From NCBI GenBank assembly GCA_964392095.1, contig CAYMOF010000001.1:12401-76400 (forward strand): DNA of 64,000 bases, in the 5' to 3' direction. The stretch comes from an uncultured Candidatus Saccharibacteria bacterium (GTDB lineage Bacteria > Patescibacteriota > Andersenbacteria > UBA10190). The translations under genes and the position numbers were made by a program. Below the pieces are notes generated by a model that saw only the letters and a program-made list of their open reading frames with translations, was not told where the DNA came from and did no database searches. Shown here piece after piece: positions 1 to 64,000 of the stretch. Position 1 is the first letter of the stretch, and every line of letters starts with the position of its first letter.

Positions 1-1249
1 GGTAAATAAACCGGCTTGAATTTTCCACTATGATGTCCCGCCCGGAAAACAAATGCGTCATCACGGCCATCCCAATCACAGCCACCACATATAATCCTAT
101 TAAGCTTTTTCTTTTGTTTAAAATAAGCAAACTAACAAGTACCGCGATAGTCGCCGGAGCCAACCTCATACTTTCAAAAGCCGCGCTATAAGAAAAACCC
201 AATCTCCCCCAGGCAGCCTCACCAGACGACATAACCAGATAAAAAATAAGCCAAACGGCCGCCAAGACTGAAAAAATAATTTTTTTTACAGCTCCGGCCC
301 TTTCGTCACTCAAAAAAGTAAAGCCGAAAAACAAAACAATTATCGCCGCCGCTACCGCCCCCAAAACAGCGTTTGATAGAATAAGGGCAATTCCTAAAAA
401 GGACACCGCTAACACCCCGAGTAACTTGTTTTTAATTTTATCTTTTTCCAGCGAATACAACAGAGCAACCAACAAGATAAACATGCCCGTCAGGAAAAAA
501 TGACTTTGAGCATATACATAACCGTCCCAGGAAAGAGCCAAAACATATAAAATCAAAAACATTTGTCCTAAAACCAGTGCCTTCTCCGACCCCACCCCAA
601 GAAGATTACAGTTCCCTTTTCTCAATTCGGACAAATAAACACGGCACCATAAATAAAACACTGGCACGGCTATTACTACTTGGACAAAAACCAAAACGGG
701 AAGTAAATAAAACATGAAATATTCTCCTCCCCAGGCACCTAAAGCATCCGCGTAAGCAGCGTGCAGTAAAACAGGATACTCCAGCTCGCCGCCTCCGTTA
801 AAAGGATTGCCCACAACCAACCCATCCACCTCTCTGGACCGGTTAAAAAGGGACAAAAATGTGGTTGTATCTCCATTATAAAAACCGCTCATTATCCAAT
901 TTCCCCCATGCCAACCGTTGACAGCCAAAATTACCGCCGCCGCTATGGCCACAATAGCTATTCCCATTAACAAAGAAGCTTCTTTAAACCACCAATTTTT
1001 TTCAAATTTAATCCAGCGAAAATTTTTTATGCCGGCCAGCCACAAGCCCAACATAACAAAAGACCCAACCAGATATACGACTGTCTTGTCCATAAACTCC
1101 TCCAGTCCCCTAGCAGCCAAAGTGGACACTAATACTTGAGCCTCAAAAAAAATACCACCAGCCGCCACAAAAGTTAAAATCGTTTTATGTCGGAACAATA
1201 TTCCGCTAGCCAAAAAAGATGCCGCGCCAATTATTATGTAAGCTAACAT
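1..1249 (-). CDS. Partial (5'-complete, runs off window start) polytopic membrane protein. Possibly Wzy/O-antigen-ligase-like, function not assignable.
   Basis: Hand translation of the reverse strand from ATG (rc of 1247-1249) gives MLAYIIIGAASFLASGILF... with many hydrophobic helices (>=10 predicted TM) and no stop before position 1. It is absent from the ORF track, presumably because it is edge-truncated. The + ORF 918..1139 is its shadow. Confidence 0.4.
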   Translation of the reverse strand, partial: MLAYIIIGAASFLASGILFRHKTILTFVAAGGIFFEAQVLVSTLAARGLEEFMDKTVVYLVGSFVMLGLWLAGIKNFRWIKFEKNWWFKEASLLMGIAIVAIAAAVILAVNGWHGGNWIMSGFYNGDTTTFLSLFNRSREVDGLVVGNPFNGGGELEYPVLLHAAYADALGAWGGEYFMFYLLPVLVFVQVVIAVPVFYLWCRVYLSELRKGNCNLLGVGSEKALVLGQMFLILYVLALSWDGYVYAQSHFFLTGMFILLVALLYSLEKDKIKNKLLGVLAVSFLGIALILSNAVLGAVAAAIIVLFFGFTFLSDERAGAVKKIIFSVLAAVWLIFYLVMSSGEAAWGRLGFSYSAAFESMRLAPATIAVLVSLLILNKRKSLIGLYVVAVIGMAVMTHLFSGRDIIVENSSRFIY

Positions 1250-1353
1250 ATATAACCATTATACATTTTTATCTTTTTCAAATTTGATCTTTTCCTTTAC
1301 TAATTAATAAATAAAGCTATTAACTCTACTCTTAATAAGCCCTTTATTATTAT

Positions 1354-2097
1354 ATGTCCAACACTAATCCAATCAGCTTACTCATTCCCGCTTACAATGA
1401 AGCTGAACGTCTAGCTCCGTTTTTGGATTCCGTTGTCGATTATAACCAAACCCACCCATCACACATACATGAAATTATTATTATTGATGACGGCAGCACC
1501 GACAGTACTTACGATCTCGCCGCTTCCTACAGCGACAAACTCCCCGTTAGACTCCTCAAACACCAAAAAAATTCCGGCAAAGGCGCGGCCATTAAAACGG
1601 GAGTTTTTTCTGCCACTGCCGAATATATTGTTTTTACCGACGCCGACGGAGCCACGCCCATAACCGAGCTTTCTAAAATGCTTAGTGCTCTGCATGATCA
1701 TCAAATTGTCGTTGGCAACAGATGGATACCCGGATCAAAAACCGACCGCCATTCCCTATTAAGAAAATTATCCGGCTGGACCTACCGACAATACATGAAA
1801 TTTTACGGCTTGGGCCAAATCGACACGATGTGCGGCTTTAAAGGATACCATCGAAATGTAGCTCTTGATCTTTTCAAAGACCTAATCGATAACCGATGGC
1901 TATTCGACACCGAAATAGCCTACAAAGCGGTTCACCTGAACTACTCTATCACCAACATACCCGTCGAATGGGAATCAAAAGAGGGCAGCAAGCTATCGGC
2001 CTTCTCTTTGATAAAATCCGCTCTTGGCATTAGGCCTCTGCTCAAAAGGGTTGACAAAACACTTTCCATGAAATCTAATAACCACCAAAACAAATAA
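1354..2097 (+). CDS. GT2 polyprenol-phosphate glycosyltransferase (DPM1/GtrB/ArnC-like)
   Basis: Motifs LLIPAYNE, IIIIDDGSTD, KNSGKGAAIKTG, FTDADG (DXD) are typical of the GT-A Dpm1-like family. Divergently oriented from the upstream membrane protein. Confidence 0.8.
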   Translation: MSNTNPISLLIPAYNEAERLAPFLDSVVDYNQTHPSHIHEIIIIDDGSTDSTYDLAASYSDKLPVRLLKHQKNSGKGAAIKTGVFSATAEYIVFTDADGATPITELSKMLSALHDHQIVVGNRWIPGSKTDRHSLLRKLSGWTYRQYMKFYGLGQIDTMCGFKGYHRNVALDLFKDLIDNRWLFDTEIAYKAVHLNYSITNIPVEWESKEGSKLSAFSLIKSALGIRPLLKRVDKTLSMKSNNHQNK

Positions 2098-3269
2098 TGA
2101 AAATAATCTTTATCACATCACAATCAGCCGGCGGATCAACTGTCATCGGCCGCATTATCCCTCTCGCTGAGGAATTTAGCCATTTCCACGAAACATATGT
2201 CTTTCTCCTTAAAAACCGTTTGTCTTCGAACAGTTCAACCGACTCCTTCAAAATTAATACTCGCTACACAGGTTTTGAGCCTTTTACTCGAAGCTCTAAA
2301 GGCAAAAAAAGACTGTCTGGTTTAAAACTGTATTCTAACCTCGCCTCAATTATTATCCGGACATTTATTGCCTTAATCTCAATTCATCCCGACTTTATAA
2401 TAATTTCAAAACCTCTCCCTCACAATGTACTTCCCGCCTGGCTCTACTCCTTAATAAACAGAAAAACCAAAATAATATCCGACGTGGATGATTATGAGCT
2501 TAGCGCCAATGTTTTAAATTCAATAACAGCCCGCATTCCAATCCATTGGTCGGAACGACAAGCTGGGCGTATTTCGGACACCATAATAACCGCTTCGCCT
2601 TTTCTGCAAAACCACTTTAAGTTTCTAACAGGAAAAAAAAACATATTTCTAATACCTACTGGTTGCTATCCCGTTACGCCGCCTGTTCCGTCAACTATCA
2701 AAAATTCATCCTCATATAACATCCTCTATATTGGTAGTTTAACATCAAGCTCCGGACACAAGATCGAGCTGTTGCCACCCATTCTAAAAAAAATTTTGGA
2801 TAAAAAAATTTCCGTCACGCTTCATATAGCCGGATCCGGAGACGATGAAGATCAACTAAAATCGCTGCTTAAACAGCTCAATATTAACAACCACTGCCAA
2901 TACCACGGCCACTTCGAAAAAAAACAATTACCGAAAATCACTAAAAACATTAACGTTATAGTTGATCCCATTGACTCTTCCGTAAACGCTCGAGCTAAAA
3001 GCAGTTTCCGGGTCTGCCTGGCTCTGGCCTACGGAATACCTGTCGTTACTAGCAACGTCGGTATTAGACCCCATTTAGTTCCCCCCTCATTTCATAACCG
3101 ATTTTTTGCCCAACCGAACGACCCCTCAGACTACGCGGAAAAAATATTCTTCCTTTTAACAAACTCCTTATCAGAACAAGAAAAGTCAGCCCTTATAAAA
3201 CATTCCCATAAATATCTCTGGCCCCAATTAGCCTCCGACTACATGAAAAAAATTAATCTGTCATCTTAA
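2097..3269 (+). CDS. GT-B glycosyltransferase, GT4-like
   Basis: C-terminal CLALAYGIPVVTSNVGIRP matches the GT4 donor-binding region. Its ATG overlaps the stop of the upstream gene (ATAATGA). Contains an A9 tract at 2633-2641. Confidence 0.6.
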   Translation: MKIIFITSQSAGGSTVIGRIIPLAEEFSHFHETYVFLLKNRLSSNSSTDSFKINTRYTGFEPFTRSSKGKKRLSGLKLYSNLASIIIRTFIALISIHPDFIIISKPLPHNVLPAWLYSLINRKTKIISDVDDYELSANVLNSITARIPIHWSERQAGRISDTIITASPFLQNHFKFLTGKKNIFLIPTGCYPVTPPVPSTIKNSSSYNILYIGSLTSSSGHKIELLPPILKKILDKKISVTLHIAGSGDDEDQLKSLLKQLNINNHCQYHGHFEKKQLPKITKNINVIVDPIDSSVNARAKSSFRVCLALAYGIPVVTSNVGIRPHLVPPSFHNRFFAQPNDPSDYAEKIFFLLTNSLSEQEKSALIKHSHKYLWPQLASDYMKKINLSS

Positions 3270-3271
3270 AT

Positions 3272-5596
3272 ATGATTTTTATTAAAGCCCTCATTGCTTG
3301 TGCTTTTCCTGTTTTTACCTTATTTTTTCCCGGCCTATTCATATTCAAACAACCACGTTCAATTAACGGTCTTTTTTCTCATCACTCGAAATCATTTATC
3401 TTTAATACCTCTTTTCTATTACTACTAACCCTCCTGTTAACCTTGCTGAAACTCCCCGTCTGGTTTTTTCTAATTACTTCTCTGCTCACCACCGCCCTTT
3501 TTCTTTTCACAAACAGAAAAGAAATTATCAATTATAAAACATTGTTTCTGCAAGCTTCGTTTCTCACCCTGTTCTTGCTAGCTTACCTGCTTTTTTCTTT
3601 TCCCTTTCTCTCCTACCATGTCGGGATGCCAACTGGCGACTCCCAGAAATCAATTTATTGGGCTGATAATATACTAGCCAACACTTCCCTGCCTAATTAT
3701 AAATCTTCCCTTGAGAAACTGAATCGAGATCCGGTGGATTTTTTCACTCCCGGTCTGCACACTGCAACCGCCTATCTAATGAGCCCCTATCGGTCAAGCG
3801 ATATTCGTTTTATGACGATAGGCTTTTACTCAATCGCCGCCTGTCTGGCTATAGCCACAGTGTGTATAAACTTAGCCAAAGAAATAATACCCGCCCCCCA
3901 CAGATTTTTGAGCCTGCTTTTAACTCCTCTTTTTCTACTTTCTAACCCGGCCTTTTTACGCTACTTGCGCGAACCTGGTTATCACTACCAGAACATAATC
4001 GGTGAGCTACTTACGTTTGGTTTGTTGCTTCTTGCAATACAAGTGTTCACCAGGCTAAATCGGACAAATCTGTTTCTTTTTGTGATTTCCTGCCTGGCTC
4101 TTATTTCCGCTCATCAATTTTCCTCTTTTATAACAATCTTTATCTTGTCCCCCCCATTGTTAATACTTGTCGCTTCTCGCCGAAAACATATATTAAAATT
4201 GATTCAACAAAACAAATTATTCTCATTCTCTGTTGCCATCTTTCTGGTAATGAGCGCCACTTTTCTTTTTAGCCTTAATCTGCACGATAAAATACCTCAT
4301 TTGTTTAATCTCAATCCCCACCTCAAAAACCTCACTCCCGGCCCAGACAAATATTTCCACGTTTTTGGAGCAGCCTGGTTTATATCAGGCGTATTTGGTC
4401 TAATTCTGCTTTCGCTTCCTCTATTCAGAAAGACCCGCCTCCCGCGATTAGCCTTTATTATCTCAACTTTTACTCTACTTCTTCTGTCTCAAGGACCGCG
4501 TTTATACATAGACATTCCTCCCGTTAGAGCGGCCTACTACCTCATTGTTCCTTTAAGTATAACCGGAGCTTATTTTTTCTCTTTCCTTTTGAATAAAACC
4601 GGATTGCTAAAAAGGAAATTTTTTTTAAGAATTTCCCTCGCCGCTATCATAATTCACCTTTCCTGTTCAGGCCTGGCCCAAGCCTACAATCTTTCTCACC
4701 AGGTCAGAACCAACTCGACTCTCATTCCTGAATATATAAACGCTATTAATTACCTCAATCAGTTTTCCGAAGGAGCCGTTTTAATCGATGATTACAACCG
4801 CAGATCAGCGTCCTGGTTGATGCTCTCCGGCTTAAACACTTATTCTAGAATTTCGGCTGATCTAAAAAGACAAATGCAGGAAGCCTCGCAGTCAGACACT
4901 CGCTATTCGCTCTATCTTAAACAACTGGACTACGAAAAGATATTTTCCCTGGGAAGCAAGCCCATATCGAAATATTTATTAGATAAACATTCTATCAACT
5001 GGATTACCGGCATAGACAATTCAAGTTCCACCAGCCTTGAATTCAATCCGGCGCTCATTAAAACCATCGAAGCGAACACGGTCAATCTTTACCATGTCAA
5101 AAAACAGGTTGACCAATCCCTCAATCAAAAAAACAAAATTTCCAACTGGCTTCTTAAAACCAGCACCTTGGTAAATGATATTGGCGACCGGGAAGATACT
5201 TACAAACACCTCCCGGCCAGCCTTCGAACAACCCGCCTTTCTGATCCTATAATTAAAGACGATCTAACCTATCGCACTTCTTCTGCTCCGATTATTCCTC
5301 TTTACTTCAACATAAATGATTACGTTTCTTTATTATGGAACAAAGAAGGCACCAGCCAACCAGATACCAGCGTCGAGCTGTATATTTCAGCCCCCAACAA
5401 CAGTTCATATCCATTAACAGTCTCAACTCCAAACAATAATGAATATGTCTTGACTTCAGAAAAACCCACCGTAAAAATTCCTCCCGCTCACGTTCCCATA
5501 AACAATCAGGGTTTTATTGTTATTAATATCTTGAACCCCCAGCAATTACCCGTATCTTTAGATCTTATAGCCCTGGGTTTAGCAAAAACCCCTTAA
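3272..5596 (+). CDS. Large polytopic membrane protein with ~250-aa C-terminal soluble domain. Candidate GT-C-fold glycosyltransferase.
   Basis: About 12 hydrophobic helices followed by a hydrophilic C-terminal domain. This architecture resembles lipid-carrier-dependent extracytoplasmic glycosyltransferases. No specific family motif recognised. Confidence 0.35.
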   Translation: MIFIKALIACAFPVFTLFFPGLFIFKQPRSINGLFSHHSKSFIFNTSFLLLLTLLLTLLKLPVWFFLITSLLTTALFLFTNRKEIINYKTLFLQASFLTLFLLAYLLFSFPFLSYHVGMPTGDSQKSIYWADNILANTSLPNYKSSLEKLNRDPVDFFTPGLHTATAYLMSPYRSSDIRFMTIGFYSIAACLAIATVCINLAKEIIPAPHRFLSLLLTPLFLLSNPAFLRYLREPGYHYQNIIGELLTFGLLLLAIQVFTRLNRTNLFLFVISCLALISAHQFSSFITIFILSPPLLILVASRRKHILKLIQQNKLFSFSVAIFLVMSATFLFSLNLHDKIPHLFNLNPHLKNLTPGPDKYFHVFGAAWFISGVFGLILLSLPLFRKTRLPRLAFIISTFTLLLLSQGPRLYIDIPPVRAAYYLIVPLSITGAYFFSFLLNKTGLLKRKFFLRISLAAIIIHLSCSGLAQAYNLSHQVRTNSTLIPEYINAINYLNQFSEGAVLIDDYNRRSASWLMLSGLNTYSRISADLKRQMQEASQSDTRYSLYLKQLDYEKIFSLGSKPISKYLLDKHSINWITGIDNSSSTSLEFNPALIKTIEANTVNLYHVKKQVDQSLNQKNKISNWLLKTSTLVNDIGDREDTYKHLPASLRTTRLSDPIIKDDLTYRTSSAPIIPLYFNINDYVSLLWNKEGTSQPDTSVELYISAPNNSSYPLTVSTPNNNEYVLTSEKPTVKIPPAHVPINNQGFIVINILNPQQLPVSLDLIALGLAKTP

Positions 5597-5611
5597 CCTC
5601 GTCCAATCCCT

Positions 5612-7066
5612 ATGCAATCTCGCGTTTCTGGAGCCGTGTCTCTCACTTTTGCCCAAGCCGTCCTTCTAATTTTGGGATGGGTTACTCACCCTTTAATAGG
5701 ACGTCTTCTAGGCACGGCCGCTTACGGCATATATGGGGTTGTTCTGTCTGTCCAAAGCATCATCGGCCTTTTTCTTACTCTGGGCGTGCCAATCGCTATA
5801 TCCAGATATGTCGCCCAAGATCCCCAGCACGCCAAAAACACGCTCCAACAGGGACTAAAAATTCAAATATCCCTGGCCTTTCTAATCTCAATCATTACCT
5901 TTTTTATTAGCCCTATTATGGCCCAGGCCCTCGGAGACCCCTCTCTCACTCCTTATTTTAGATTTATTTCTCTTGTCGTTTTCGTACAATCCGGTTATCC
6001 CGTCTTTGTTCAATATTTCAGCGGACTTCACCTTTTTAACAAACAAGCTCTTTTAACTGTAATTTATGCCATCATTAAATTAGGCGCGGCCATTTCTCTG
6101 ATCTTTGTTTTTAACATATATGGAGCCTTCAGCGGATTCGCCATCGGGGGACTGATTGCCGCTTTTTTGGGTTACTTATGGTCCAAAAATCTCGGCGGCC
6201 GATTAACCAAACGCTTGCCGTTAAACTCTTTCCTTTCTTTTGCCAGCTCTTACGTTTTTATTCTTTTTGGCCTTCAGCTTCTCATCAGCCTGGATCTATT
6301 TATGGTCAAAGCCCTTCTTAAAGACAATGTATCCGTCGGCTATTACAACGCTTCTGTCACACTGTCACGCATCCCTTACCTGCTCCTCCAGGGACTTTCC
6401 TTCGTACTATTACCCAGTGTTTCCTCGCTAACAAAACCCGGGGCTTCCCACACCAAGGCCGTTAGGTTTATAAGCAACACCCTACGCTATCTTATTGCCA
6501 TAATCGTGCCGGGAGCAATGCTGGCGGCCACCACCAGCAAAAACCTCATCATACTTTTTTTCAGCACAGATTACCTGCCCGCGGCCAGCAGCCTGACTAT
6601 CCTTATGATCGGTCTCAGTACTCTGGCTTTTTTTCTGTTGTTAGCCAATATTATTGCCGGCGCCGGCCGTCCTTTAATTGCCTTGTTTACAACATTACTC
6701 ACCTTGGTCATTAGCGGTCTCTTGGGTTACATCCTCATTCCGTCTTTTGGCATATACGGAGCCGCGTGGCAAACAACCATCGCCAGTCTTATCGGCTTGC
6801 TTATTCTTTCCATCTATACCTTCAAATCATTTAATATCCCCCTTCCTTTAAAGAGCGCCTTTAACATCACTATCGCTTCTGGACTGGCTGTAATCCCCAC
6901 CTACATATGGTCTGTCCCTCCGCTTCTCTTACCTGCTCAATACCTGGTTCTTTTTTCCTTATACGCGCTTGCCTTGCTCTTCCTCGGAGAAATAAAGAAA
7001 TCAGATATTGACCTCATAGCAAACTCTCATCCGCTTTTTAATAAATTATTATCACGCCTTAAATAA
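5612..7066 (+). CDS. Wzx-like polysaccharide flippase (MOP superfamily, polysaccharide biosynthesis protein family)
   Basis: 484 aa, about 12-14 TM. The N-terminal pattern VSLTFAQAVLLILGWVTHPLIGRLLGTAAYGIYGVV is typical of Wzx/PST family proteins. Confidence 0.7.
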   Translation: MQSRVSGAVSLTFAQAVLLILGWVTHPLIGRLLGTAAYGIYGVVLSVQSIIGLFLTLGVPIAISRYVAQDPQHAKNTLQQGLKIQISLAFLISIITFFISPIMAQALGDPSLTPYFRFISLVVFVQSGYPVFVQYFSGLHLFNKQALLTVIYAIIKLGAAISLIFVFNIYGAFSGFAIGGLIAAFLGYLWSKNLGGRLTKRLPLNSFLSFASSYVFILFGLQLLISLDLFMVKALLKDNVSVGYYNASVTLSRIPYLLLQGLSFVLLPSVSSLTKPGASHTKAVRFISNTLRYLIAIIVPGAMLAATTSKNLIILFFSTDYLPAASSLTILMIGLSTLAFFLLLANIIAGAGRPLIALFTTLLTLVISGLLGYILIPSFGIYGAAWQTTIASLIGLLILSIYTFKSFNIPLPLKSAFNITIASGLAVIPTYIWSVPPLLLPAQYLVLFSLYALALLFLGEIKKSDIDLIANSHPLFNKLLSRLK

Positions 7067-7068
7067 CC

Positions 7069-7653
7069 ATGATTAGTCGCCGACCAATAATCATATTAAG
7101 CCTAATTATAATCGCTTTCACCGTCCTCCCGCTCATCTGGTTTACCTCCAAAACATCAATCAAGGTCGGCTCATTAGAAAACATAAAAGGCATACCTTTT
7201 GCCGCTCATAACAATTCTGTACTAATAACAGAAGAATTAGCCCATACTGACATTTACTTAAACAAATCCATTTTCGCCAAACAGGCAAAAATAAAAATTA
7301 CTTTTACCCCCCTAAAAACCTCATCTATTTCAGTGGGCATACGCGAAAATCCGTTTTGGTTAAGTTATACTCAATATCCCCTTTACAATTCATCAGCTAA
7401 CAATTCCCAAAACGATAAAATCCGAGCCGAAGCCACCATACCCCTAACCGATAAACTTACCGACAAAGACGGTTTTTTAGACATGATGATTTTTTCTAAC
7501 TCGCCCAACCTCTCTATTGCCGGCCAACCACACCCGGACTTCACTTATTGGTTATTGCACGATCTTGAAATCAACGTTGAGCCTGTCGTGCCTTCACGTC
7601 TAGAAGCTAAAGATTTTATCTTATCAATATTTAAAAACGAGAAACCAATATAA
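7069..7653 (+). CDS. Hypothetical membrane-anchored protein (N-terminal TM plus extracytoplasmic domain)
   Basis: Single N-terminal hydrophobic helix (IIILSLIIIAFTVLPLIWF), no recognisable motifs. Tightly packed in the operon. Confidence 0.3.
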   Translation: MISRRPIIILSLIIIAFTVLPLIWFTSKTSIKVGSLENIKGIPFAAHNNSVLITEELAHTDIYLNKSIFAKQAKIKITFTPLKTSSISVGIRENPFWLSYTQYPLYNSSANNSQNDKIRAEATIPLTDKLTDKDGFLDMMIFSNSPNLSIAGQPHPDFTYWLLHDLEINVEPVVPSRLEAKDFILSIFKNEKPI

Positions 7654-7661
7654 ATTATTTT

Positions 7662-9170
7662 ATGAACAATAGTCTCCGCAAACTCAAAAACCCCCTCTTT
7701 TTTATAGTTGTCCTATTACTGCTGGTTGCCAGTATTCCTATCCTTAACACCAAGGTAGATAGAATATCAGCCAACCTTAAACCCGACGAAGGAATAATAA
7801 ACGGACAGGTATTAAAAAAAGCTACCAGCTACCGTCAATCATTCCTTGTTAACACTAAAAACATTTCCAAGATCGGCTTCCACCTTAGATATACCGTCAC
7901 CACCCCCCCCATTGGCAACCTTTCCATTAACATTTTAAGAAATAAACAAATCATTTTTTCCCAAACAGTTAATTCATCTCTAATTGACTCTGCCGGTCCC
8001 ACCTACGTTAAAATCAATCCTCCAATCAAAACCTCCCCCGGTGAAAAACTGTCAGCCGAGATTTTGGTTTCTAAAGAACTAAATCAGGTTTTAAGAGCCC
8101 AACACCGCCATCTGGACAAGTCTTTCAACCCCAAAACGACTACTTTTTATATAAACGACGTTCAGCAACCTAGCCCTCTTGCCTATCAAACACTTTACTC
8201 CCACACGCCTCCTCTAGCTTTGCAACTTGGCTGTCTCCTTATTTTCACATCTCTGGCCGCCCTTTTAATAAAAATATTCAAGCTTCCTCAAGAGCTTTTC
8301 ACTCATCCTTTCTCCTCCATAATTCTTAAAAAAATATCTCCCGGAAAAAGAACTGCTTTCGCCCTCCTGATTTTATCTTATGTCTTAACCGCCCCCGCTT
8401 TATTTCTTTTTTCAATAAAGGGAAACGCCAATCAACTATTAACTATTTATTTTTATTCAGTTGCCGTTCTCTCCTTATTTATCTTCATCTCCTGTAAAAA
8501 AAATCTAGCTATGGTTCCCGCGCTCTTTGGTTCTCACGCTCTCGCCTTCTCCAGCTGGTATCCCCTTCAAGTTCTTTCCAGCAAGCCCCGTCTAGCCGTT
8601 ATTACCATCGCCCTTCTCTTTATTGTCGCCCTTTTGCCTATCCGCAAAACAGCTCCTCAATTCAGTGCGCTCTCAAGCTCTCTTCTTCTTATTATTCTCT
8701 TATTGCTTATAAAACTCTCTTTTATTGAGCCCGGAGTCACCTCTAATGTCCGAGATATCTTTCTCGACCCCAACCAGTCTATCATGGCCGACAAAAAAAA
8801 CAGCTTGAGCTGGAACAATTACGGCAGTTATATAGGAATTATCCCTGCGTTTTTTGCGTTTGCCGGAATTTTTTTTCATCATAAGAAATTTCTGCCTGTT
8901 CTTACCATAGGTCTTGTCGGATTAGCCCTGGCCACCATCTCTCCCATTACCGCTTTTTTTAACCAATTTTTTCCCCTGCCCGGACAAAACTTGTCCATAC
9001 TGATAACTATGTCCTTAAGCTTTTTTGCGGCGATAGGATTACAGTCTTCTATGAATTTCTTCAACCCCGGAAAATATAAATTTCAAAGCGGCCTTATTCT
9101 TTTACTTTTTTCTCTTATCACCATAATATCTCTCCTCGATATCTGGCATGTATCAGCCACTATCCGATAA
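7662..9170 (+). CDS. Hypothetical polytopic membrane protein (N-terminal TM, ~170-aa extracytoplasmic domain, C-terminal multi-TM region)
   Basis: Topology inferred from hydrophobic segments. Could be a polymerase/ligase-type protein but no motif support. Confidence 0.3.
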   Translation: MNNSLRKLKNPLFFIVVLLLLVASIPILNTKVDRISANLKPDEGIINGQVLKKATSYRQSFLVNTKNISKIGFHLRYTVTTPPIGNLSINILRNKQIIFSQTVNSSLIDSAGPTYVKINPPIKTSPGEKLSAEILVSKELNQVLRAQHRHLDKSFNPKTTTFYINDVQQPSPLAYQTLYSHTPPLALQLGCLLIFTSLAALLIKIFKLPQELFTHPFSSIILKKISPGKRTAFALLILSYVLTAPALFLFSIKGNANQLLTIYFYSVAVLSLFIFISCKKNLAMVPALFGSHALAFSSWYPLQVLSSKPRLAVITIALLFIVALLPIRKTAPQFSALSSSLLLIILLLLIKLSFIEPGVTSNVRDIFLDPNQSIMADKKNSLSWNNYGSYIGIIPAFFAFAGIFFHHKKFLPVLTIGLVGLALATISPITAFFNQFFPLPGQNLSILITMSLSFFAAIGLQSSMNFFNPGKYKFQSGLILLLFSLITIISLLDIWHVSATIR

Positions 9171-9182
9171 ACCGCTTCTAAA

Positions 9183-10763: not shown

Positions 10764-10779
10764 CTAACTAAACCTGCTT

Positions 10780-12998: not shown

Positions 12999-13186
12999 TA
13001 CCCTATTCGGAACCAGCCGCTGAAGTATCAGAACCTGCCGGGCCTAGCGCCGCCTCGTTATGTGAGTAGATTCCCTATAGTCTCTTTATCAAAACCGACA
13101 AATAGGTTACAAAATATACAGCTTGAGATTAGTATTATGAAATCGGACTTTATGTAGCGTACACACCACGCCCTTAATTAATATTT

Positions 13187-50587: not shown

Positions 50588-50821
50588 ACCCACCCCGCTA
50601 AACACTGAACTGTAAGCGTTTTATCCCAAAATGATATAAAATACCTTAACCTAACGAAAAACATAAAAGAAGCTCAAATGCGACATCAACTATATTTCAC
50701 TTACTCCGACGGCCATCTTAACAAAACCGGATCAGAAATAATCGGCCGCGCCCTAGTTAAAAAATTCACTTCCTGGCTTCAAAATAAACCCGCTCACAAA
50801 TAACTTTGTCTTTCGATTTTT

Positions 50822-51556: not shown

Positions 51557-51613
51557 CTTCTTGCTATCTCTACTCACAATCATAAAAACTGAACCCTCGC
51601 CTATAGAAAAATT

Positions 51614-53144: not shown

Positions 53145-53149
53145 AATAA

Positions 53150-54585: not shown

Positions 54586-54604
54586 ATTTTATCTTAATAT
54601 CAAA

Positions 54605-54724
54605 GCTAGTTCTTTTGGCGAATTAGAGGTCCTTTTCGGCCTGGTCCCACGCTCAGCGTGGACGAAAAGGGCCAAAGCCTCGGAGCTACCGCTGGGGCAA
54701 CGAGAATGAGCCAAAAGAACTAGC
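54605..54724. repeat. 120-bp GC-rich palindromic element. Perfect 15-bp terminal inverted repeats enclose nested hairpins. Candidate structured RNA or MITE-like element.
   Basis: GCTAGTTCTTTTGGC (54605-54619) is the exact reverse complement of GCCAAAAGAACTAGC (54710-54724). Inner stems are 54631-54638/54663-54670 (CCTTTTCG/CGAAAAGG) and 54647-54652/54656-54661 (CCACGC/GCGTGG). Confidence 0.4.
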
Positions 54725-54746
54725 CTTGATAATCCAAAACATAAAC

Positions 54747-56554: not shown

Positions 56555-57235
56555 TCATTTTCCATTTTCTCTCCTTCCCCACATTCTCTTCACCTTCCCT
56601 AAAATATTCTTCAACACCACATTTCCTCTTTTTCCAGCAAAATGATCCGCGTTATAATACTCCTCATCAATATCGGATCTCTTGGGGGTTTGCCAGTCAC
56701 CATAAACATGCTCCAAGAACTTTTCCGGCGGTGACGGCACTAAAAACTGCCTCCCCTTAAAATCGATTTTCTCTTTTTCGTTGAAAAAACGAGCCGGGTA
56801 CTTATAAGCCGGACGAGTCCTGTACTCACCATCGTCACGCAATGCCCCTAAAGCGATTTTTTGGCCGTATTTAAAAAACGCCATCTTAGGAAACCTATTA
56901 CTTTCAATCAACCGCACCACGAAACCAGCCTCTATCAACCTTTCTTTCAATTCCTTCATCACCCCGACAAACTCCTCCTCCAACATGTCCAAATCAACAT
57001 CATCGTCCCAGGCAATGAAATTATTCTCTCTAATTGCCCCCAGTAAACTTCCCCCCGTTAACCAAAACCTGACGCCGGCAGAACTCAATACGTCGCTGGC
57101 CTCCTGCAAGGCCTTCTCTCTTGCCTGTAAATCAAACGGGTAAGGTTGGACTACTCGGGGTCTTGCTTTTTTCCATCTCCTGCGCGACAGGTTGCTCAAA
57201 CGCCTGATTTCACCTTGTGAAAATTCGTAACTCAT
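56555..57235 (-). CDS. LicD-family phosphotransferase (second paralog)
   Basis: RFWLTGGSLLGAIRENNFIAWDDDVDLDM. Roughly 45% identical by eye to the LicD at 53992. Confidence 0.75.
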   Translation of the reverse strand: MSYEFSQGEIRRLSNLSRRRWKKARPRVVQPYPFDLQAREKALQEASDVLSSAGVRFWLTGGSLLGAIRENNFIAWDDDVDLDMLEEEFVGVMKELKERLIEAGFVVRLIESNRFPKMAFFKYGQKIALGALRDDGEYRTRPAYKYPARFFNEKEKIDFKGRQFLVPSPPEKFLEHVYGDWQTPKRSDIDEEYYNADHFAGKRGNVVLKNILGKVKRMWGRRENGK

Positions 57236-57912
57236 ACCATCTTCACACTATACCTCCACCTGGACTGCATATAAAACTCTAATCGATCAATATCCTCATC
57301 ATAAAATTCAACCTTTCTGCCCAACTCATCCCCGATTTTAATAAAAAATTCTTTATCATAAAACATATGGCTCGGGGTAACCTTTCCCCCGACCTTTTTT
57401 CGGCTCTCCAGCCTATCTAAATATCTTTCCCTCTTCTTTTTCTTACCCGCATCATTCACATCACCGATAATAATTCGTCCGTCCTTTTTGGCCACCCTAA
57501 CCATCTCTTTAACCGCCTGGATCGCGTACTTACAAGACGGAAAATACTGCCAAACGCTCCAAGCGCAAACCACGTCAAAACGATTGTCATCAAAAGGAAT
57601 CTTATTAGCTTCGGCTACTCTAAAATCACCCTCTATGTTTTTCCTGATAATATCAATTGAATCTTTAGCGTAATCAACCCCCGCCAAACTTCCCCACTTT
57701 TCAACCTCCATAAGAATCGCCCCCGCCCCGCAACCTACCTCCAAAACATCATCCCGAGAGCCAATCTCACACAGATCCAAAAAATAGTCGGCCAAATCCT
57801 TCCACTGTTTTCTATTTAGGGTTTCAAAACCATCCATCACGTGAAGAATATCAACATCGCCGCCAGGCCGATATTTTTTGTCCCATATTTTTAACCACTG
57901 TTTATCCCTCAT
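57232..57912 (-). CDS. Class I SAM-dependent methyltransferase
   Basis: VLEVGCGAGAIL (motif I), FDVVCAWSVWQYF, DGRIIIGDV. Confidence 0.7.
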   Translation of the reverse strand: MRDKQWLKIWDKKYRPGGDVDILHVMDGFETLNRKQWKDLADYFLDLCEIGSRDDVLEVGCGAGAILMEVEKWGSLAGVDYAKDSIDIIRKNIEGDFRVAEANKIPFDDNRFDVVCAWSVWQYFPSCKYAIQAVKEMVRVAKKDGRIIIGDVNDAGKKKKRERYLDRLESRKKVGGKVTPSHMFYDKEFFIKIGDELGRKVEFYDEDIDRLEFYMQSRWRYSVKMV

Positions 57913-59714
57913 ATGTCTATCCTGATCCTGCCCTGATCAACAGAAGAATATCCGGCAGAAAAGACGGTTCCCTCTTTCACATAATCCTTAGCCCCTTTTA
58001 CCGCCTGTTCTCTTTCCATTTCCGGTATTTTTTTTGATACTTCCTCACTGTCATCAGCCCACCCCTCCTCGCTAAGCCTGTAAGCCTCGACCCTTTTTAC
58101 ATTATCGCTATTAATCACGCCATTTTTAAACCCAAAGAAAACTATCCACTTGTAATGATCATCATATCCGGCTACTCCCACTGATCCAAGAGTCTTGTAA
58201 TCTACCGTTTCATTAATCCAATAAACACCTCCGTAAAACCTCTCGCTTACCGCCTCGTAGTATCCGGGCAACTCCCAGCCGGCCACTTCCGCCAGTAAAC
58301 CATAAACAGAAGATGTCGCACTAATAAATTTACCAGCTTTTTCTTGCCACCTGCCAGCACCTTCCCAGCCTTCTGAAGTTTTAAACATCATTGGCACCCG
58401 CAAGCGGTCCTCATAAAACTGATAACTATATCTGGTATAAGGCGGTACCGACCGGCCATGATCAGCCAATAACACAATATGACTCTGGGGAAAATACGAC
58501 TCCCCTTCCAACCAGGTCAACAGAGTTTCCAAAAACAAATCCAGCTGTTTCAAAGTCTCCCAATACCCGCTAAAAGCCGCGTTGTTTTTATCTTTTGTGC
58601 CTCTAATACTCGCGTAGGGCGGGTGGGCCCCAGGCAAATGCAAATGAACATAAGTCGGCTCCCGCCTAGCATTAGCTATAAATTGCGTCGCTGTTTTTAG
58701 GGACGGATATTTTCTTATCCGACCACTGCAAACATTTATGTACCTGTGAAAACCACGCGCGTGCCCATATTGAGGCCGCCACTTGGAAAAAAAAGTCAAG
58801 CCTAAGCTTTTGTAACCGTCACCCGAGGCCAATTCAGCCACCGTTTTTATACGAGGAGAAAGTGTCATTAATTTGTCGCTATAATGCCAAGTGTCATAGT
58901 CGTAAATCATATGCCTGGTTAAACCCAGGCCGGTCATCAAACAAGCCGAAGCGCTGCCGGTCACGCTAGCCGAACACACCGCCTTTTTAAAAACAATTGA
59001 ATTTTCGGCCATCTTATTAAACCCCTTCAGCTCCGTCCGGCCCCTTAGGTCACTAGCCGTCACCGCGTCAACAGATAATACCAACAACAGGGGGGGCTTT
59101 TGTCCTTTTTTTTTAAAACAAGCCCTAGTTAAAAAAACTTTTTTATCATTTTTTTTGCCGCTCTTATCTTTAACCTCGACGTCATCAACATAAACAGTTA
59201 AATTTCCCTCTTTACTTACTAATTGATCGGGAATCTCAACCAACAACTCCACCCACCAGTCTTCTTTATCAACATTTCTCGCAAAATCTCTGTCAAAACC
59301 GCACTTAAAACTATATTCTTCCCCCTCTTTGTTGCCGTAACCACTTCCAAAAATCATCCTGCCCTTCACCCGCAAAGACCCAATCTCTCCTACCGGCTTT
59401 CCCGTAAAAACCTCAAAAGACACTTCTCGACCCGCTTTTACCCCCTTCCTCTCATACACTTTCACTGGTCCGCTCTTGCCCCACTTTCTACAAAGCCTGC
59501 CTTCATAACTTTGATAATCACGTGTTTTTTCTTTATGAATCAAAACCACGCTCCTCTCTTTTTCAATCCCAACAACTCGACCGCGCTTGTATCTGCCAAC
59601 CTTCACGGACACCAGATACTTCACTTTCTCCCAGGCTTTCTTAATCTCTTCCCGCCAATTAAGCCTTTCTTCAAATACTAAAATCTGTTGCTTTTTATCG
59701 CTCACACTCCACAA
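57909..59714 (-). CDS. Alkaline-phosphatase-superfamily sulfatase-like protein with ~190-aa N-terminal soluble extension. Lacks the C/S-x-P-x-R FGly motif.
   Basis: LLLVLSVDAVTASDL (metal-binding Asp region), HLHLPGAHPPY, IVLLADHG (sulfatase/LtaS GDHG motif). The nucleophile region is TGSASACLMTG in place of CxPSRxxxLTG. No TM helix. The sense strand carries A9 (top T9 at 59106-59114). Confidence 0.6.
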   Translation of the reverse strand: MWSVSDKKQQILVFEERLNWREEIKKAWEKVKYLVSVKVGRYKRGRVVGIEKERSVVLIHKEKTRDYQSYEGRLCRKWGKSGPVKVYERKGVKAGREVSFEVFTGKPVGEIGSLRVKGRMIFGSGYGNKEGEEYSFKCGFDRDFARNVDKEDWWVELLVEIPDQLVSKEGNLTVYVDDVEVKDKSGKKNDKKVFLTRACFKKKGQKPPLLLVLSVDAVTASDLRGRTELKGFNKMAENSIVFKKAVCSASVTGSASACLMTGLGLTRHMIYDYDTWHYSDKLMTLSPRIKTVAELASGDGYKSLGLTFFSKWRPQYGHARGFHRYINVCSGRIRKYPSLKTATQFIANARREPTYVHLHLPGAHPPYASIRGTKDKNNAAFSGYWETLKQLDLFLETLLTWLEGESYFPQSHIVLLADHGRSVPPYTRYSYQFYEDRLRVPMMFKTSEGWEGAGRWQEKAGKFISATSSVYGLLAEVAGWELPGYYEAVSERFYGGVYWINETVDYKTLGSVGVAGYDDHYKWIVFFGFKNGVINSDNVKRVEAYRLSEEGWADDSEEVSKKIPEMEREQAVKGAKDYVKEGTVFSAGYSSVDQGRIRIDI

Positions 59715-59796
59715 CTATTAATTACATTTATTATTACATCCGGACCTGGATATTGGGATCGCCCCATATAATAATCCGCTTCTTTCACGTCACTCC

Positions 59797-62004
59797 TTAA
59801 TAAAACACTCTCTTTCCAGCCCCTACCCTTTTTCTAACCATCTCCTGAATCTCCCTCCGCATAAACCAGTCCGGCAGATCCCTGCCTTCCTGAAAAGCCT
59901 TGCGGGCCTGGGTACCGCTAATCATCTCCACTGTGCCCGCTTCACTCAAACTCACATAAGTTTTCCTTTTAGGATTAAAACCAACCGCCTCAAAGAATAC
60001 CGGCTCAACACCAATATCCCCAACCTTTTCAAATATTTCCTTTGTTTCTCTGGGCTTATAAAAATCTCCTACTCCAGTATGGTCGCGCCCGACAATAAAA
60101 TGGCTACACCCCATATTTTTCCTGCATAAGGCAGTAAATACTGCCTCCCTGGGGCCGGCGTATCTTGAATAAGTGGAAAAGCTTCCTAAAACAGCCCTGC
60201 CTTTAGGATAAGCTCCGTTTTTAATAGCCAGTTCATAGCTTCTCATTATCGGCCCCGTTAACCAGTCACCGCTTTTCTTAGGGCCTATCACCGGGCTCAA
60301 AAATAACCCGCTTGCTCCCGTCCTTTTAAGGGCCGTCAACTGCAAATACTCGTGCGCTCTATGCACCACATTTCTTGTATGAAAACCCACCACTTTACGC
60401 CACCCCTTATGGGTAAATATTTGCCGCGTCTGATGCGGATCCAGCTCATATTTCCGCCAAACAGAATCCCCTTTTTCTATCAATTCCACCTCTCCCGCTA
60501 TAAACATCTCCCCCGATTCCATAAACCTTCTCACTCCCGGATGATCCCGAGACGTTGTCTTAAACCACAGCCTGGCCGCTTCTTCCCGATCACATTCATA
60601 AACTTCGCTAACTTTCAATAAACTATGCTTTTTGCCCTTGCCATCTTTTAGAACAACTCTCATGCCCGGTTTAATTTTTTCAGCTCTTCTTCTATCTACC
60701 TGCAATATAACCGGCATAGTCCAAACGCACCCGTTCAGCAATTTCATATCATATAAAACACTAAACAGCTCGTCTTTAGTCATAAATCCAGAAACCGGTG
60801 AAAATGTGCCTAGAGCGATCTGCTCACAATCCATCAGGTCGGTATCCTCCACTGTCAAGCTCATCAAATCATCTAAATCTTCCTTTGAACCGCTATACAA
60901 ATTTTTCAAAAGTTTTCCCCCGTGAGGCTCCACCAGCATAGACACCGAAGTGGACACTATGAAGCTTTTCGTTTCTCCGACCTCCCTTTCATATTGCTTC
61001 ATTAATCTTATTATCATTTCCGCGCAAGCTACCGGATATCTGCCCACCGCCGTCTCAGCCGCTAACACCAAACCGTCAGCCCCGTCCGCTAAAGTGTTGT
61101 AAATATCATTAACTTCCGCCCTGGTAGGAACAGGCGCTTCCACCATAGATTCCAACAGATTAGTGGCCACGTAAACGCGCCTGTCCAGATTATGACACTC
61201 AGCAATTATTTTTTTCTGCAAACGAGGAAGCAGCTCTATTGAAGCCTCCCGCGACAAATCGCCTCGATCAATCAAGATATCGTTCGCGCTTGCGGCAATC
61301 TGCTTCAAATTTAACAACCCTTCTTCACATTCAATTTTCGCCGTAACCTTAAACCCTTCCCCAACAATTTCTCTCACCTCTTGTATATCTTCAACGCGAT
61401 GAGCAAAAGATAACGCCACGTTGCTTATCCCCAAACCTTTAACCTGCTTCAAAGCCTCTCTGTCTTTATCTGTTAAAGGAGATAACCTTATTTTTCTATC
61501 AACAGAAAGAGCTTTGTTCTGCTCAATTATCCCTTCTTCCAAAACCTTTAAAATCACTTTTTTCTCGTCTTTTACAATAACCCGCAACAAAACTTTTCTA
61601 TAATCAACGGTCACCAGATCCCCAACCCGCAAGCTTCTGCCTACTTCTTCTGGGTAAAAACTGAAATTAGGCCCCGCGGCTATCGCGTTACCCCCACCTT
61701 CTTTTAGATAAACCGTTAACTCCTCCTCCTCTTCCACCCAAATTTTTCTTCCTCCCTGATATCCCGTCCTGGGCTGGGCTCCTTCCGTATCAATACATAT
61801 CGGAACCGCGCTGTGTCTTCTAACCAGCCCCACCAAATTACCTAAATCATAAACATCCGTATGAGACATGTTGATTCTGAACAAATTAACCCCCAGATCC
61901 GTTAAGCTCCTTATTACCTCCGCGTTCATTGACGCCGGTCCCAAGGTGCACCAAACTTCTTTTCCCTTATTAAATTTGGATATTTCTGACATAAACTTCG
62001 TCAA
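59797..62004 (-). CDS. Fusion protein: pyruvate-kinase-like N-terminal domain (A+B domains, catalytic residues conserved) joined to a complete ATP sulfurylase (sulfate adenylyltransferase, Sat type)
   Basis: N-terminal part: TLGPAS..NLFRINMSHTD, IDTEGAQPRTG, KIECEEG, DRGDLS, ATNLLESMVEAPVPTRAEVNDIYNTLADGADGLVLAAETAVGRYP (PK signatures). C-terminal part: PUA-like segment LVEPHGGKLL..., then GFHTRNVVHRAHEYL (QTRNP.HRAHE motif) and IVGRDHTGVGDFY (GRDHAG motif). Confidence 0.75.
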   Translation of the reverse strand: MTKFMSEISKFNKGKEVWCTLGPASMNAEVIRSLTDLGVNLFRINMSHTDVYDLGNLVGLVRRHSAVPICIDTEGAQPRTGYQGGRKIWVEEEEELTVYLKEGGGNAIAAGPNFSFYPEEVGRSLRVGDLVTVDYRKVLLRVIVKDEKKVILKVLEEGIIEQNKALSVDRKIRLSPLTDKDREALKQVKGLGISNVALSFAHRVEDIQEVREIVGEGFKVTAKIECEEGLLNLKQIAASANDILIDRGDLSREASIELLPRLQKKIIAECHNLDRRVYVATNLLESMVEAPVPTRAEVNDIYNTLADGADGLVLAAETAVGRYPVACAEMIIRLMKQYEREVGETKSFIVSTSVSMLVEPHGGKLLKNLYSGSKEDLDDLMSLTVEDTDLMDCEQIALGTFSPVSGFMTKDELFSVLYDMKLLNGCVWTMPVILQVDRRRAEKIKPGMRVVLKDGKGKKHSLLKVSEVYECDREEAARLWFKTTSRDHPGVRRFMESGEMFIAGEVELIEKGDSVWRKYELDPHQTRQIFTHKGWRKVVGFHTRNVVHRAHEYLQLTALKRTGASGLFLSPVIGPKKSGDWLTGPIMRSYELAIKNGAYPKGRAVLGSFSTYSRYAGPREAVFTALCRKNMGCSHFIVGRDHTGVGDFYKPRETKEIFEKVGDIGVEPVFFEAVGFNPKRKTYVSLSEAGTVEMISGTQARKAFQEGRDLPDWFMRREIQEMVRKRVGAGKRVFY

Positions 62005-62069
62005 TTAACTACCTCTGCTTTCTAAGCATACTTTCCATGAAAACCAAATACAAACACTATTAAAACACA

Positions 62070-63860
62070 TTATCCGCCTTGCGCAGCCAGCAATCTCGCG
62101 TAGAGACCTCCTTTTTGTTTCAATTTCTCGTGAGCCCCTTCTTCCGTTATTTGGCCCCTGTCTAACACGACAATTCTGTCCGCGTCGGCTATGGTCGATA
62201 AACGGTGAGCAATAACCACACTCGTCCGCCCCGCCCCCACCCTGTCTAAAGCTTCCTGCACCAAATTCTCCGACTCGCTATCCAAAGCCGAAGTTGCCTC
62301 GTCTAGAATCAATATTTCCGGATTCCGCAAAACCGCCCTGGCAATAGCTATACGCTGTCTCTGTCCGCCCGACAGTCTTATACCCCTATCCCCCAGCATA
62401 GTATTATACCCCCCCTTAAAACTGGTGATAAATTCATGAGCGTTAGCTAATTTTGCCGCTCTTTTTATATCAGCAAACGTCGCTTTCTCATCCGCGAAAC
62501 CTATATTAGCCTTTATCGTGTCGTTAAACATAAACGTATCTTGCGTCACCACCCCAATATGCTCCCGCCAAGACTCGATTCTATAATCTCTCAAGTCCGT
62601 GCCATCAACCACAATCCTTCCCTCCTGCGGATCAAAAAACCTAAGCAGTAATCCAGCCACGGTAGATTTCCCCCCCCCTGAAGGCCCAACAATAGCCACC
62701 TTCTTTCCTTTTCTAACAACAAAAGACACGTTTCTTAAAGCATAATGATCGTCCTCACTATATGTAAAACCAATCTTTTTAAAAACGATCTCTTTTGCTA
62801 AACCGTTATAACTCTTCTCCCCATCCGGCAAATAAACCTTATTGCTTTTATTCAAAAACTCATCCAGTCCCTTAAGAGCCGGCAACACACCGGCTATACT
62901 CGCCCGCCCCTGGTTAATCATGGCTACCGGCACTATTAGCCTGAACAGAATAATCACAAAAGTTAAAAGCGCTTCCATCCACTTGTTAAGATCTCCGGCT
63001 AACAAAAAAGAGGCCACTATTAATATCAAAGCCAGCGACGTTACGCTTGTCATTTCAAACATTGGTAAAACCGATGCGTTGGCCCGCGCCCCCATGTAAG
63101 TGGCGTCAGCATTTTTGTCTATCGCCTTATACACCTCTCTTCTCACTAACTTTTCCCTGTTAAACGCTTTTATCACTCTCATTCCGCCAATAGCCGACAA
63201 TATCAGGTCATTAAGTTTTTTCATAGCTTCGTTCCCCAGTTTATTGGCCATCTCCGCTCTTTTCATTGCCCCCCTTAATGTCAGTGACGACAAAAATACC
63301 AGCACCAGCGAAACTATAGTTAATTGCCAGGATATAACAAACAGCATCATCAAAAGCACCAGTATTGTGAATAATTTCGGTATCATCGGCCCCACCGCAT
63401 TAACCAGAGTGCCCATCCAACTAGTGTAATAGGACGCGATAGTAAACAAATCTGAGCCTCTTTGCTTTTCCAGATAACCGGTGCTTACCTGCAACAACTG
63501 CGTAAAGCAGAATCGCCGAAACCTGCTCACGGTATTAGCCACTAAGCGAGCGGTAACTTTAGCGTTAAAGTAATAAACCGCCCCCTTTAACGTCGTTAAA
63601 ACCAAAAGCAGTACGGCCACCCGGCGGATACGATCCACGGCGCCTACGTCTGCAAACCAGCGCGCGAAAACATTCAGCGCCGCGGGCAGAGCGCTAACTT
63701 CACTGCCGCTCACGCCCTGAAGCAACGGAACCACCAGTGTCATTGTCAGTCCTTCCAACACCGACACCGCGACTCCTGATACCGCTAAACCGGCTACCAG
63801 CCAGGGAAACAATTTATACAGCCTGTATCCTCTTTTTATTAAATCAATATAAACCCGCAT
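62070..63860 (-). CDS. ABC exporter, fused TMD-NBD (MsbA/type I exporter-like)
   Basis: Six-helix TMD, then Walker A GPSGGGKST, signature LSGGQRQRIAIARA, Walker B ILILDEAT. The track ORF starts at TTG 63896. The first ATG is at 63858-63860 (MRVYIDL...). Confidence 0.85.
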   Translation of the reverse strand: MRVYIDLIKRGYRLYKLFPWLVAGLAVSGVAVSVLEGLTMTLVVPLLQGVSGSEVSALPAALNVFARWFADVGAVDRIRRVAVLLLVLTTLKGAVYYFNAKVTARLVANTVSRFRRFCFTQLLQVSTGYLEKQRGSDLFTIASYYTSWMGTLVNAVGPMIPKLFTILVLLMMLFVISWQLTIVSLVLVFLSSLTLRGAMKRAEMANKLGNEAMKKLNDLILSAIGGMRVIKAFNREKLVRREVYKAIDKNADATYMGARANASVLPMFEMTSVTSLALILIVASFLLAGDLNKWMEALLTFVIILFRLIVPVAMINQGRASIAGVLPALKGLDEFLNKSNKVYLPDGEKSYNGLAKEIVFKKIGFTYSEDDHYALRNVSFVVRKGKKVAIVGPSGGGKSTVAGLLLRFFDPQEGRIVVDGTDLRDYRIESWREHIGVVTQDTFMFNDTIKANIGFADEKATFADIKRAAKLANAHEFITSFKGGYNTMLGDRGIRLSGGQRQRIAIARAVLRNPEILILDEATSALDSESENLVQEALDRVGAGRTSVVIAHRLSTIADADRIVVLDRGQITEEGAHEKLKQKGGLYARLLAAQGG

Positions 63861-63879
63861 AGCTAAATGGTACTTTATA

Positions 63880-63919
63880 ACCACCGGCCAACACAAAACT
63901 CCCGAAGGGATCCTTTGGG
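63880..63919 (-). terminator. Weak hairpin followed by a U-tract on the minus strand (possible terminator for an off-window upstream gene, or 5'-leader structure of the ABC gene)
   Basis: Imperfect hairpin at 63901-63919 (CCCGAAGGGATCCTTTGGG). On the minus-strand transcript it is followed by AGUUUUGUGUU. The stem is interrupted by mismatches on that strand. Confidence 0.2.
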
Positions 63920-64000
63920 AACAGATTTGTATTTCCTTATCCTCCCGCCTACTTTGATATATATGCCTGAAAACCCCAAAAGAACGCCTGTTGATGTTGC

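Follow-up and report, generated by a model that had tools for sequence, protein, structure and literature searches.

Why does one strand of a bacterial chromosome carry so much more cytosine than guanine? This question is raised by a 64,000-nucleotide stretch of contig CAYMOF010000001.1 (positions 12,401 to 76,400; hereafter the window) from an uncultured candidate phyla radiation (CPR) bacterium, in which a sequence-only reading had noticed a pronounced excess of C over G on the top strand. The excess is real. The top strand consists of 18,813 A, 17,851 C, 9,213 G and 18,123 T (A 29.4%, C 27.9%, G 14.4%, T 28.3%; GC content 42.3%), which corresponds to a GC skew of −0.319, clearly outside ±0.1, and an AT skew of +0.019. 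The departure of G and C from parity amounts to 52 standard deviations. All 64 non-overlapping 1-kb windows lie below −0.10, all 2-kb windows fall between −0.19 and −0.40, and 93% of the 60-nucleotide lines are negative. The hand counts behind the original claim were off by one to three C in four of the six lines (the true G/C counts are 6/19, 9/23, 4/16, 11/18, 9/22 and 10/12), but the lines were still representative. The cumulative skew is monotonic within the 64 kb, and sliding windows showed neither a sign change nor an unskewed island within 1..64000. A gradient along the window (slope −0.01 per 10 kb; p = 0.04) is so slight, and so entangled with gene orientation, that we do not interpret it. 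Our yardstick was a set of 53 loci from other phyla, each 5 kb or longer, for which the median absolute skew was 0.074 and the maximum 0.185. The suspicion that the magnitude is above the usual was thus correct; a genome of the same composition, that of the CPR bacterium Ch65 (see below), was singled out as the obvious outlier among 17,873 complete genomes (Zhang 2024, PMC11514846).

The asymmetry belongs to the strand and not to the genes. The gene set comprised 52 open reading frames (ORFs) of at least 150 amino acids, with two shadow ORFs discarded. Genes on the top (+) strand have a top-strand GC skew of −0.586 at four-fold degenerate sites (5,719 sites), and genes on the bottom (−) strand one of −0.453 (2,812 sites); read along the coding strand, these values become −0.59 and +0.45, respectively. 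Intergenic DNA (4.4 kb) has a GC skew of −0.319. Partitioning the four-fold values attributes about −0.52 to the strand and about −0.07 to the coding strand. Furthermore, the third-position top-strand skew is negative in 52 of the 52 ORFs (−0.32 to −0.66, mean −0.51, standard deviation 0.08). These data support the earlier claim of a strand-associated rather than transcription-associated skew. Differences in damage or repair between coding and template strands of co-oriented genes would fit the mostly shared orientation of the genes near murJ, the lipid II flippase gene of the window, and would also fit the AT skew at four-fold sites, which follows the coding strand (T>A, −0.24 and −0.27 in the two orientations, with a strand component of about +0.01). 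However, the 19 − genes (21.6 kb) have the same top-strand sign at near-equal size, as do the − genes of the related loci L058 (e.g. its pstSCAB block), L059, L066, L007 and L001; together with the skewed intergenic DNA and the small coding-strand component, this makes a transcriptional origin scarcely credible.

By codon position, the strand component is −0.27 at position 1, −0.21 at position 2 and −0.49 at position 3. From these sizes it follows that the pressure is mutational, with roughly half of it felt at non-synonymous positions. Instead of mutation, one could invoke selection on the usage of codons or amino acids, for instance in + genes rich in membrane proteins, and many polytopic membrane proteins are indeed found among the + genes. 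Yet the skew is strongest at four-fold sites, present in intergenic DNA and weakest at codon position 2; the two strands differ even within single protein families, and orthologues track the skew of their locus. We therefore regard selection as very unlikely. All 52 ORFs are equilibrated, including those in blocks of horizontal appearance, and a per-gene search for recently acquired, un-skewed genes found none among them. The low total skew of the ORF at 13187-13915 reflects amino-acid constraint, its four-fold skew being −0.44.

The effect on the proteins is large. The + genes are enriched 1.4- to 2.0-fold in H, P, N, I, T, Q and S, and the − genes 1.6- to 2.4-fold in E, V, M, R, G and W, whereas K, A and C are equal between the strands. 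The opposite amino-acid drift of the two strands that had been proposed thus holds overall, except that K and A do not differ and D differs only mildly; M, R and W have to be added to the residues depleted in + genes. Three comparisons separate this drift from protein function. First, five families have paralogues on both strands (GT4, DPM1-like GT2, MOP flippases, FkbM methyltransferases and class I methyltransferases). Their summed G+E+V+R+M+W is 0.18-0.23 in the + members and 0.31-0.36 in the − members, while P+H+T+S+Q+N+I is 0.36-0.42 and 0.19-0.27, respectively. Second, we followed orthologues of + genes (13 syntenic families) through 29 loci. The window has a G+E+V+R of 0.156, L028 one of 0.160 and L007 one of 0.169, compared to 0.20-0.26 in unskewed loci, and the Spearman correlations with locus skew are +0.83 for M, +0.76 for E, +0.72 for V, −0.79 for P and −0.68 for L. 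Third, the − genes of block 56555-63896 were aligned with their orthologues in L055 (skew −0.04) over 2,270 positions. G+E+V+R is 0.314 in the window and 0.205 in L055, and P+H+T+S+Q+N is 0.198 and 0.292. The net replacements toward the window proteins are I to V, K to R, L to V and S to G. The lower GC content of L055 also contributes to these differences. Taken together, the three controls exclude a functional confound.

A skew of this kind could also arise from an assembly or sequencing artefact, or from a non-chromosomal replicon such as a rolling-circle plasmid or a phage, as rolling-circle replicons show a monotonic cumulative skew (PMC3269016). For MurJ (9183-10763) we found more than 120 homologues at 49-61% identity; the best (55-61%) include several named Candidatus Andersenbacteria. 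Loci of relatives were collected with murJ as the anchor gene from GTDB species representatives and JGI metagenomes, and were sampled up to 10 kb on either side of it. The order and orientation of the genes in 1354-27155, including the − genes in 23854-27155, are the same in related contigs of metagenome-assembled genomes (MAGs; 16 or more genes), some of which are 100-700 kb long. Because of this collinearity and the murJ matches, the window appears to be ordinary chromosomal DNA of an uncultured, groundwater-type CPR bacterium of the class Andersenbacteria. The same skew recurs in independent NCBI, JGI, ENA and Logan contigs produced by different assemblers, the reading frames are intact, the gene order is conserved and the homologous blocks lie on contigs of 100-700 kb; an artefact or a foreign replicon is accordingly most improbable.

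All loci of relatives were oriented with murJ on the + strand. About half of them are C-rich on this strand, in a graded manner from −0.11 to −0.36. The strongly C-rich group comprises, with their GC skews, L080 (−0.355), L078 (−0.342), L028 (−0.334), L082 (−0.294), L059 (−0.292), L007 (−0.270), L069 (−0.244), L001 (−0.217), L066 (−0.216), L002 (−0.203), L004 (−0.197), L027 and L063 (both −0.193), L006 (−0.189), L058 (−0.184), L077 (−0.173), L009 (−0.160), L079 (−0.137), L011 (−0.127), L067 (−0.113) and L013 (−0.110). About twenty other loci are near zero and none exceeds +0.10. No sign switch was seen in any Andersenbacteria-type locus examined, and in some relatives T exceeds A on the C-rich strand. 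Two loci carry the same murJ block on a G-rich strand: in L073 (Ga0080064_1000038, a 398-kb contig) four-fold sites give +0.19 for + genes and +0.22 for − genes, and in L061 (Ga0233431_1000122, 175 kb) they give +0.32 with T>A. The strand that bears this co-oriented block is thus weakly G-rich in some lineages but strongly C-rich in others, which makes L073 and L061 natural controls for what changed in the skewed lineages. In a neighbour-joining tree of nine syntenic proteins, also after Dayhoff recoding, most unskewed loci form one clade and the skewed ones occupy the rest. The skew is a heritable, graded lineage trait of constant sign. Three unskewed loci (L005, L010 and L017) are nested among skewed ones in this tree, which may itself be affected by composition bias; their position suggests that the trait can be lost or has been gained repeatedly.

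The window matches, in form and size, a disparity described for Candidatus Chazhemtobacterium aquaticus Ch65, whose closed genome of 801,504 bp has 29.83% C, 14.97% G, 27.87% A and 27.33% T on one strand (Kadnikov et al. 2020, PMC7143001). In Ch65 the cumulative GC skew falls over the whole chromosome and the AT skew is trendless; the rRNA genes lie on the C-rich strand, as do 449 of the 838 genes, the other strand carrying 389 (PMC7143001). Similar profiles were reported for one Collierbacteria and one Beckwithbacteria genome, and Kadnikov et al. put forward unidirectional replication as an explanation and regarded the trait as a likely property of the order UBA1400 (Microgenomatia) (PMC7143001). 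The two compositions are nearly identical, with a GC skew of −0.319 in the window and −0.33 in Ch65, as worked out from the published percentages. Neither shows an A/T disparity, both are independent of gene orientation, the C-rich strand is somewhat more gene-rich in both, and both organisms are CPR bacteria with small genomes. On the other hand, best homologues and 16 or more collinear genes place the window in the class Andersenbacteria and not in Microgenomatia/UBA1400, so that the disparity occurs in a second CPR class; the restriction to UBA1400 was a taxonomic boundary suggested by those authors and does not concern the mechanism. Whereas continuity in Ch65 extends over the whole chromosome, here it covers 64 kb and 20-kb samples in relatives. 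Unlike the trait described for UBA1400, that of the Andersenbacteria is graded from 0 to −0.36, with relatives of weakly opposite sign on the same block. This graded series, the opposite-sign relatives and the transversion signature described below go beyond the published description. We found no report in the literature linking Andersenbacteria with GC skew, and the list of genomes with 'rolling circle' skew by Chen et al. (2020) contains no CPR.

Classical replication skew (Lobry 1996; Grigoriev 1998; reviewed in PMC3269016) is likewise strand-fixed, independent of transcription and strongest at silent sites, and it shifts codon and amino-acid usage. The window differs from it in magnitude, being about twice the maximum of our control loci (0.319 vs 0.185), in having a C-rich gene-rich strand, in lacking a T>A or A>T strand component, and in its strong purine deficit at silent sites; moreover, no switch at an origin or terminus was observed.

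Silent sites indicate which changes are involved. At two-fold sites, which change by transitions only, C/(C+T) on the top strand is 0.51 in + genes and 0.47 in − genes (complemented), and G/(G+A) is 0.16 and 0.26, respectively. Top-strand transitions have thus brought G:A to about 1:3-4 and left C:T at about 1:1, a transition asymmetry that is equivalent to an excess of C→T on the bottom strand. In the mean of the two gene orientations, A has a frequency of.258 at the four-fold sites of the top strand, C of.376, G of.118 and T of.248, so that purines make up 0.376. This deficit requires a strand-asymmetric flow of transversions, and because transitions and transversions both act, no A/T asymmetry is left. 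Among relatives with enough genes on both strands, the four-fold purine fraction is 0.32-0.45 in all seven skewed loci, 0.48-0.50 in five unskewed ones and 0.566 in L073. As the purine deficit is common to the skewed loci while the transition asymmetry is weak in several of them (L001, L066 and L077), the shared core of the trait is of the transversion type.

Two simpler chemistries were considered and rejected. Plain deamination of cytosine on the opposite strand as the sole cause is incompatible with the purine deficit and with A=T at silent sites. Context-specific deamination (methylated motifs, CpG) does not agree with a G deficit that is uniform with A/T flanks (−0.33 to −0.43), nor with CpG, which is not depleted (rho 1.05).

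We consider it highly probable that the window reflects an unusually strong, strand-fixed mutation bias on an otherwise ordinary Andersenbacteria chromosome. Such a bias would deplete the + strand of G, which is equivalent to a loss of C on the − strand, by a transition route together with a purine-to-pyrimidine transversion route, leaving silent sites of the + strand at 38% purine. The likelier source may be unrepaired guanine lesions or asymmetric misincorporation on one template. Equilibrium would have been reached in every gene, about half of the pressure passing on to codon positions 1 and 2, with proteins of the + strand drifting toward P, T, H, Q, N, S, L and I and those of the − strand toward G, E, V, R, M and W. 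All 64 kb would be copied by forks moving one way, since replication is the only known process that distinguishes the strands over tens of kilobases. Several points weigh against this interpretation. Neither an origin, a terminus nor a sign switch was seen in the DNA examined, and the link to replication is reached by exclusion. Composition alone cannot name a lesion or an enzyme. The closest skewed pair shares 72% nucleotide identity, which means that silent sites are saturated and that the pair is too distant for a substitution spectrum. Finally, the assignment to Andersenbacteria is based on one protein search, synteny and depositor labels, with many loci labelled otherwise, and not on a marker-gene phylogeny.

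A strand-fixed replicative bias leaves two possible polarities. In the window, 64% of coding bases are on the C-rich strand; in the murJ loci of skewed relatives this share is about 55-100%, with 80% or more in most. Either polarity would be unusual: most genes would be transcribed head-on to replication, or the skew rule would be inverted. In our estimate the chances are about even that the C-rich, gene-rich strand is the leading one, the reverse of the usual rule. A wider proposal is more tentative, and we think it rather doubtful: the leading strand of these Andersenbacteria, and by the same token that of Ch65-type CPR, would be C-rich, and a new, dominant transversion-type asymmetry would have overridden and inverted the near-universal rule of a G-rich leading strand. 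Guanine lesions might then stay unrepaired on the exposed lagging-strand template, or a reduced replisome might misincorporate.

The alternative, whose probability we place somewhat short of even, is a replication skew of ordinary polarity but much greater strength, in which the G-rich (−) strand would be leading, its sequence being the one that is single-stranded as lagging-strand template, and the murJ block would be head-on. It predicts the observed excess of bottom-strand over top-strand C→T at two-fold sites, and it has a precedent in vertebrate mitochondria, where strand-displacement replication goes along with a genome-wide GC skew of about −0.3 on the sense strand of most genes and amino-acid composition is strongly affected. 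Mitochondrial light strands are also A-rich, a signature of C→T plus A→G deamination on the displaced strand, whereas the window has A and T in about equal amounts and an asymmetry made up largely of transversions, and the chromosome is bacterial and of roughly 1 Mb. Most skewed relatives are found in one part of the tree and none is strongly opposite, so that the constant sign would be explained by a single ancestral switch in the mode of replication. In bacteria, a leading strand with G>C is the rule (PMC7143001, PMC7111523). Such a skew could follow from a change to unidirectional replication or to a very asymmetric origin and terminus, as Kadnikov et al. proposed for Ch65. Against an ordinary polarity stands the gene-richness of the C-rich strand, here and in Ch65, where the rRNA genes and most genes would be head-on. 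In addition, it is the G-rich strand that bears this block, equally oriented, in relatives with ordinary weak skew such as L073, and deamination alone predicts A>T on the C-rich strand without a purine deficit, neither of which holds.

Chargaff's second parity rule and a G-rich leading strand hold in almost all bacterial genomes, Ch65 being the single obvious outlier among the 17,873 complete ones (PMC11514846). A second CPR class with the disparity provides a natural comparative series, from 0 to −0.36 in the same gene order and with some members of ordinary opposite sign. Genes of replication or repair that vary together with the trait can be sought in it, and public reads can test the direction of the forks. 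The skew also has practical consequences: unless applied per strand, composition-based binning, detection of horizontal transfer, codon-usage indices, gene callers and models of amino-acid substitution will go wrong. Paralogues on opposite strands differ almost two-fold in G, E, V, R, M and W, which can distort phylogenies.

The main features of the window are listed in the table.

Features of the 64-kb window (coordinates of the window; top strand = +)
Coordinates	Strand	Feature	Remarks
1..1257	−	Membrane-protein gene, 5′ part, runs off the window start	Open stretch of 419 aa, G/V/A-rich like other − genes
1354..22252	+	Conserved cell-envelope glycopolymer cluster, seventeen co-oriented genes on the C-rich coding strand	Gene order shared with Andersenbacteria MAG loci; Pfam labels of syntenic genes
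9183..10763	+	murJ (lipid II flippase)	Pfam MurJ 3.5e-63
23854..31572	−	Five genes (four GT4, one 697-aa membrane protein)	One + gene inside, 25173-25940
31681..45082	+	Second + block: GT2, GT4, GT2-GT4 fusion, PMT_2-like, FkbM methyltransferase, M14-like	Fully skewed
45048..49500	−	GT2, DegT aminotransferase, Wzx-type flippase, small ORF	Coding strand G-rich
49583..52432	+	One GT4, two class I methyltransferases	Methyltransferases are + members of the within-family comparisons
52401..55568	−	Sulfotransferase, FkbM methyltransferase, LicD-like, one unknown	
56555..63896	−	LicD, methyltransferase, sulfatase-like, pyruvate-kinase-barrel/PUA/ATP-sulfurylase fusion, ABC exporter	Collinear with unskewed 36%-GC metagenome contig L055

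The gene that runs off the start of the window has a counterpart of about 600 amino acids at the same position and on the − strand in relatives. The members of the conserved cluster encode GT2, GT4 and GT-C-like membrane proteins, a Wzx-type flippase, MurJ, heptosyltransferase-like, YfhO-like and Glyphos_transf-like proteins and a deacetylase, and the products of its + genes are poor in G, E, V and M. The top-strand skew of the − block that follows, −0.34 to −0.41, equals that of the + genes. For the second + block no counterpart was found within 10 kb of murJ in relatives. No tRNA or rRNA genes and no Rfam matches were found within the 64-kb window, nor did ARAGORN detect any tRNA or tmRNA gene in ten loci of skewed relatives.

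Inside the conserved cluster, a RimK-like ATP-grasp gene (17508-18350, +) and a Mur-ligase-like gene (19006-20289, +) flank a polysaccharide-deacetylase-like gene. The Mur-ligase-like gene has a counterpart in no related murJ locus and the ATP-grasp gene in three only; as both are fully skewed, their insertion is not recent. Without homologue in related loci is also the metallo-beta-lactamase-fold ORF at 55678-56295 (+), with a GC content of 53%, 62% GC at third codon positions and a four-fold skew of −0.78, among the strongest. A long ORF at 22253-22762 (−) has neither a Pfam match nor a homologue in relatives and overlaps the predicted start of 22692-23864. Two other long ORFs, 28985-29698 (+) and 59223-59681 (+), completely overlap − genes and are probably shadow ORFs.

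In the right-hand block, a single protein of 735 amino acids (59797-62004, −) combines the pyruvate-kinase barrel, a PUA-like domain and an ATP sulfurylase. Its gene is neighboured by those of a sulfatase-family protein (57909-59714, −), LicD proteins, methyltransferases and a Sulfotransfer_2 protein (52401-53144, −). The same fusion and gene order occur in the unrelated contig L055, beside genes for APS (adenosine 5′-phosphosulfate) kinase and PEP (phosphoenolpyruvate) mutase. The arrangement resembles a mobile cassette for glycans that are sulfated or decorated with phosphonate. The ABC exporter is 100% identical to one NCBI protein, encoded on a contig of 83,730 bp. The best other homologues of this exporter (62070-63896, −) are from Omnitrophota and Margulisiibacteriota (41-46%) and not from Andersenbacteria, with the exception of one match at 76% and one at 49%, which suggests that the block was acquired horizontally. 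Its skew is fully equilibrated despite this apparent acquisition.

In the 25 nucleotides upstream of the 41 genes with an ATG start, a Shine-Dalgarno-like motif is nearly absent (1 of 28 + genes and 1 of 13 − genes). Since the G-rich strand lacks the motif too, its absence is not due to the depletion of G, and translation initiation appears to be independent of Shine-Dalgarno pairing.

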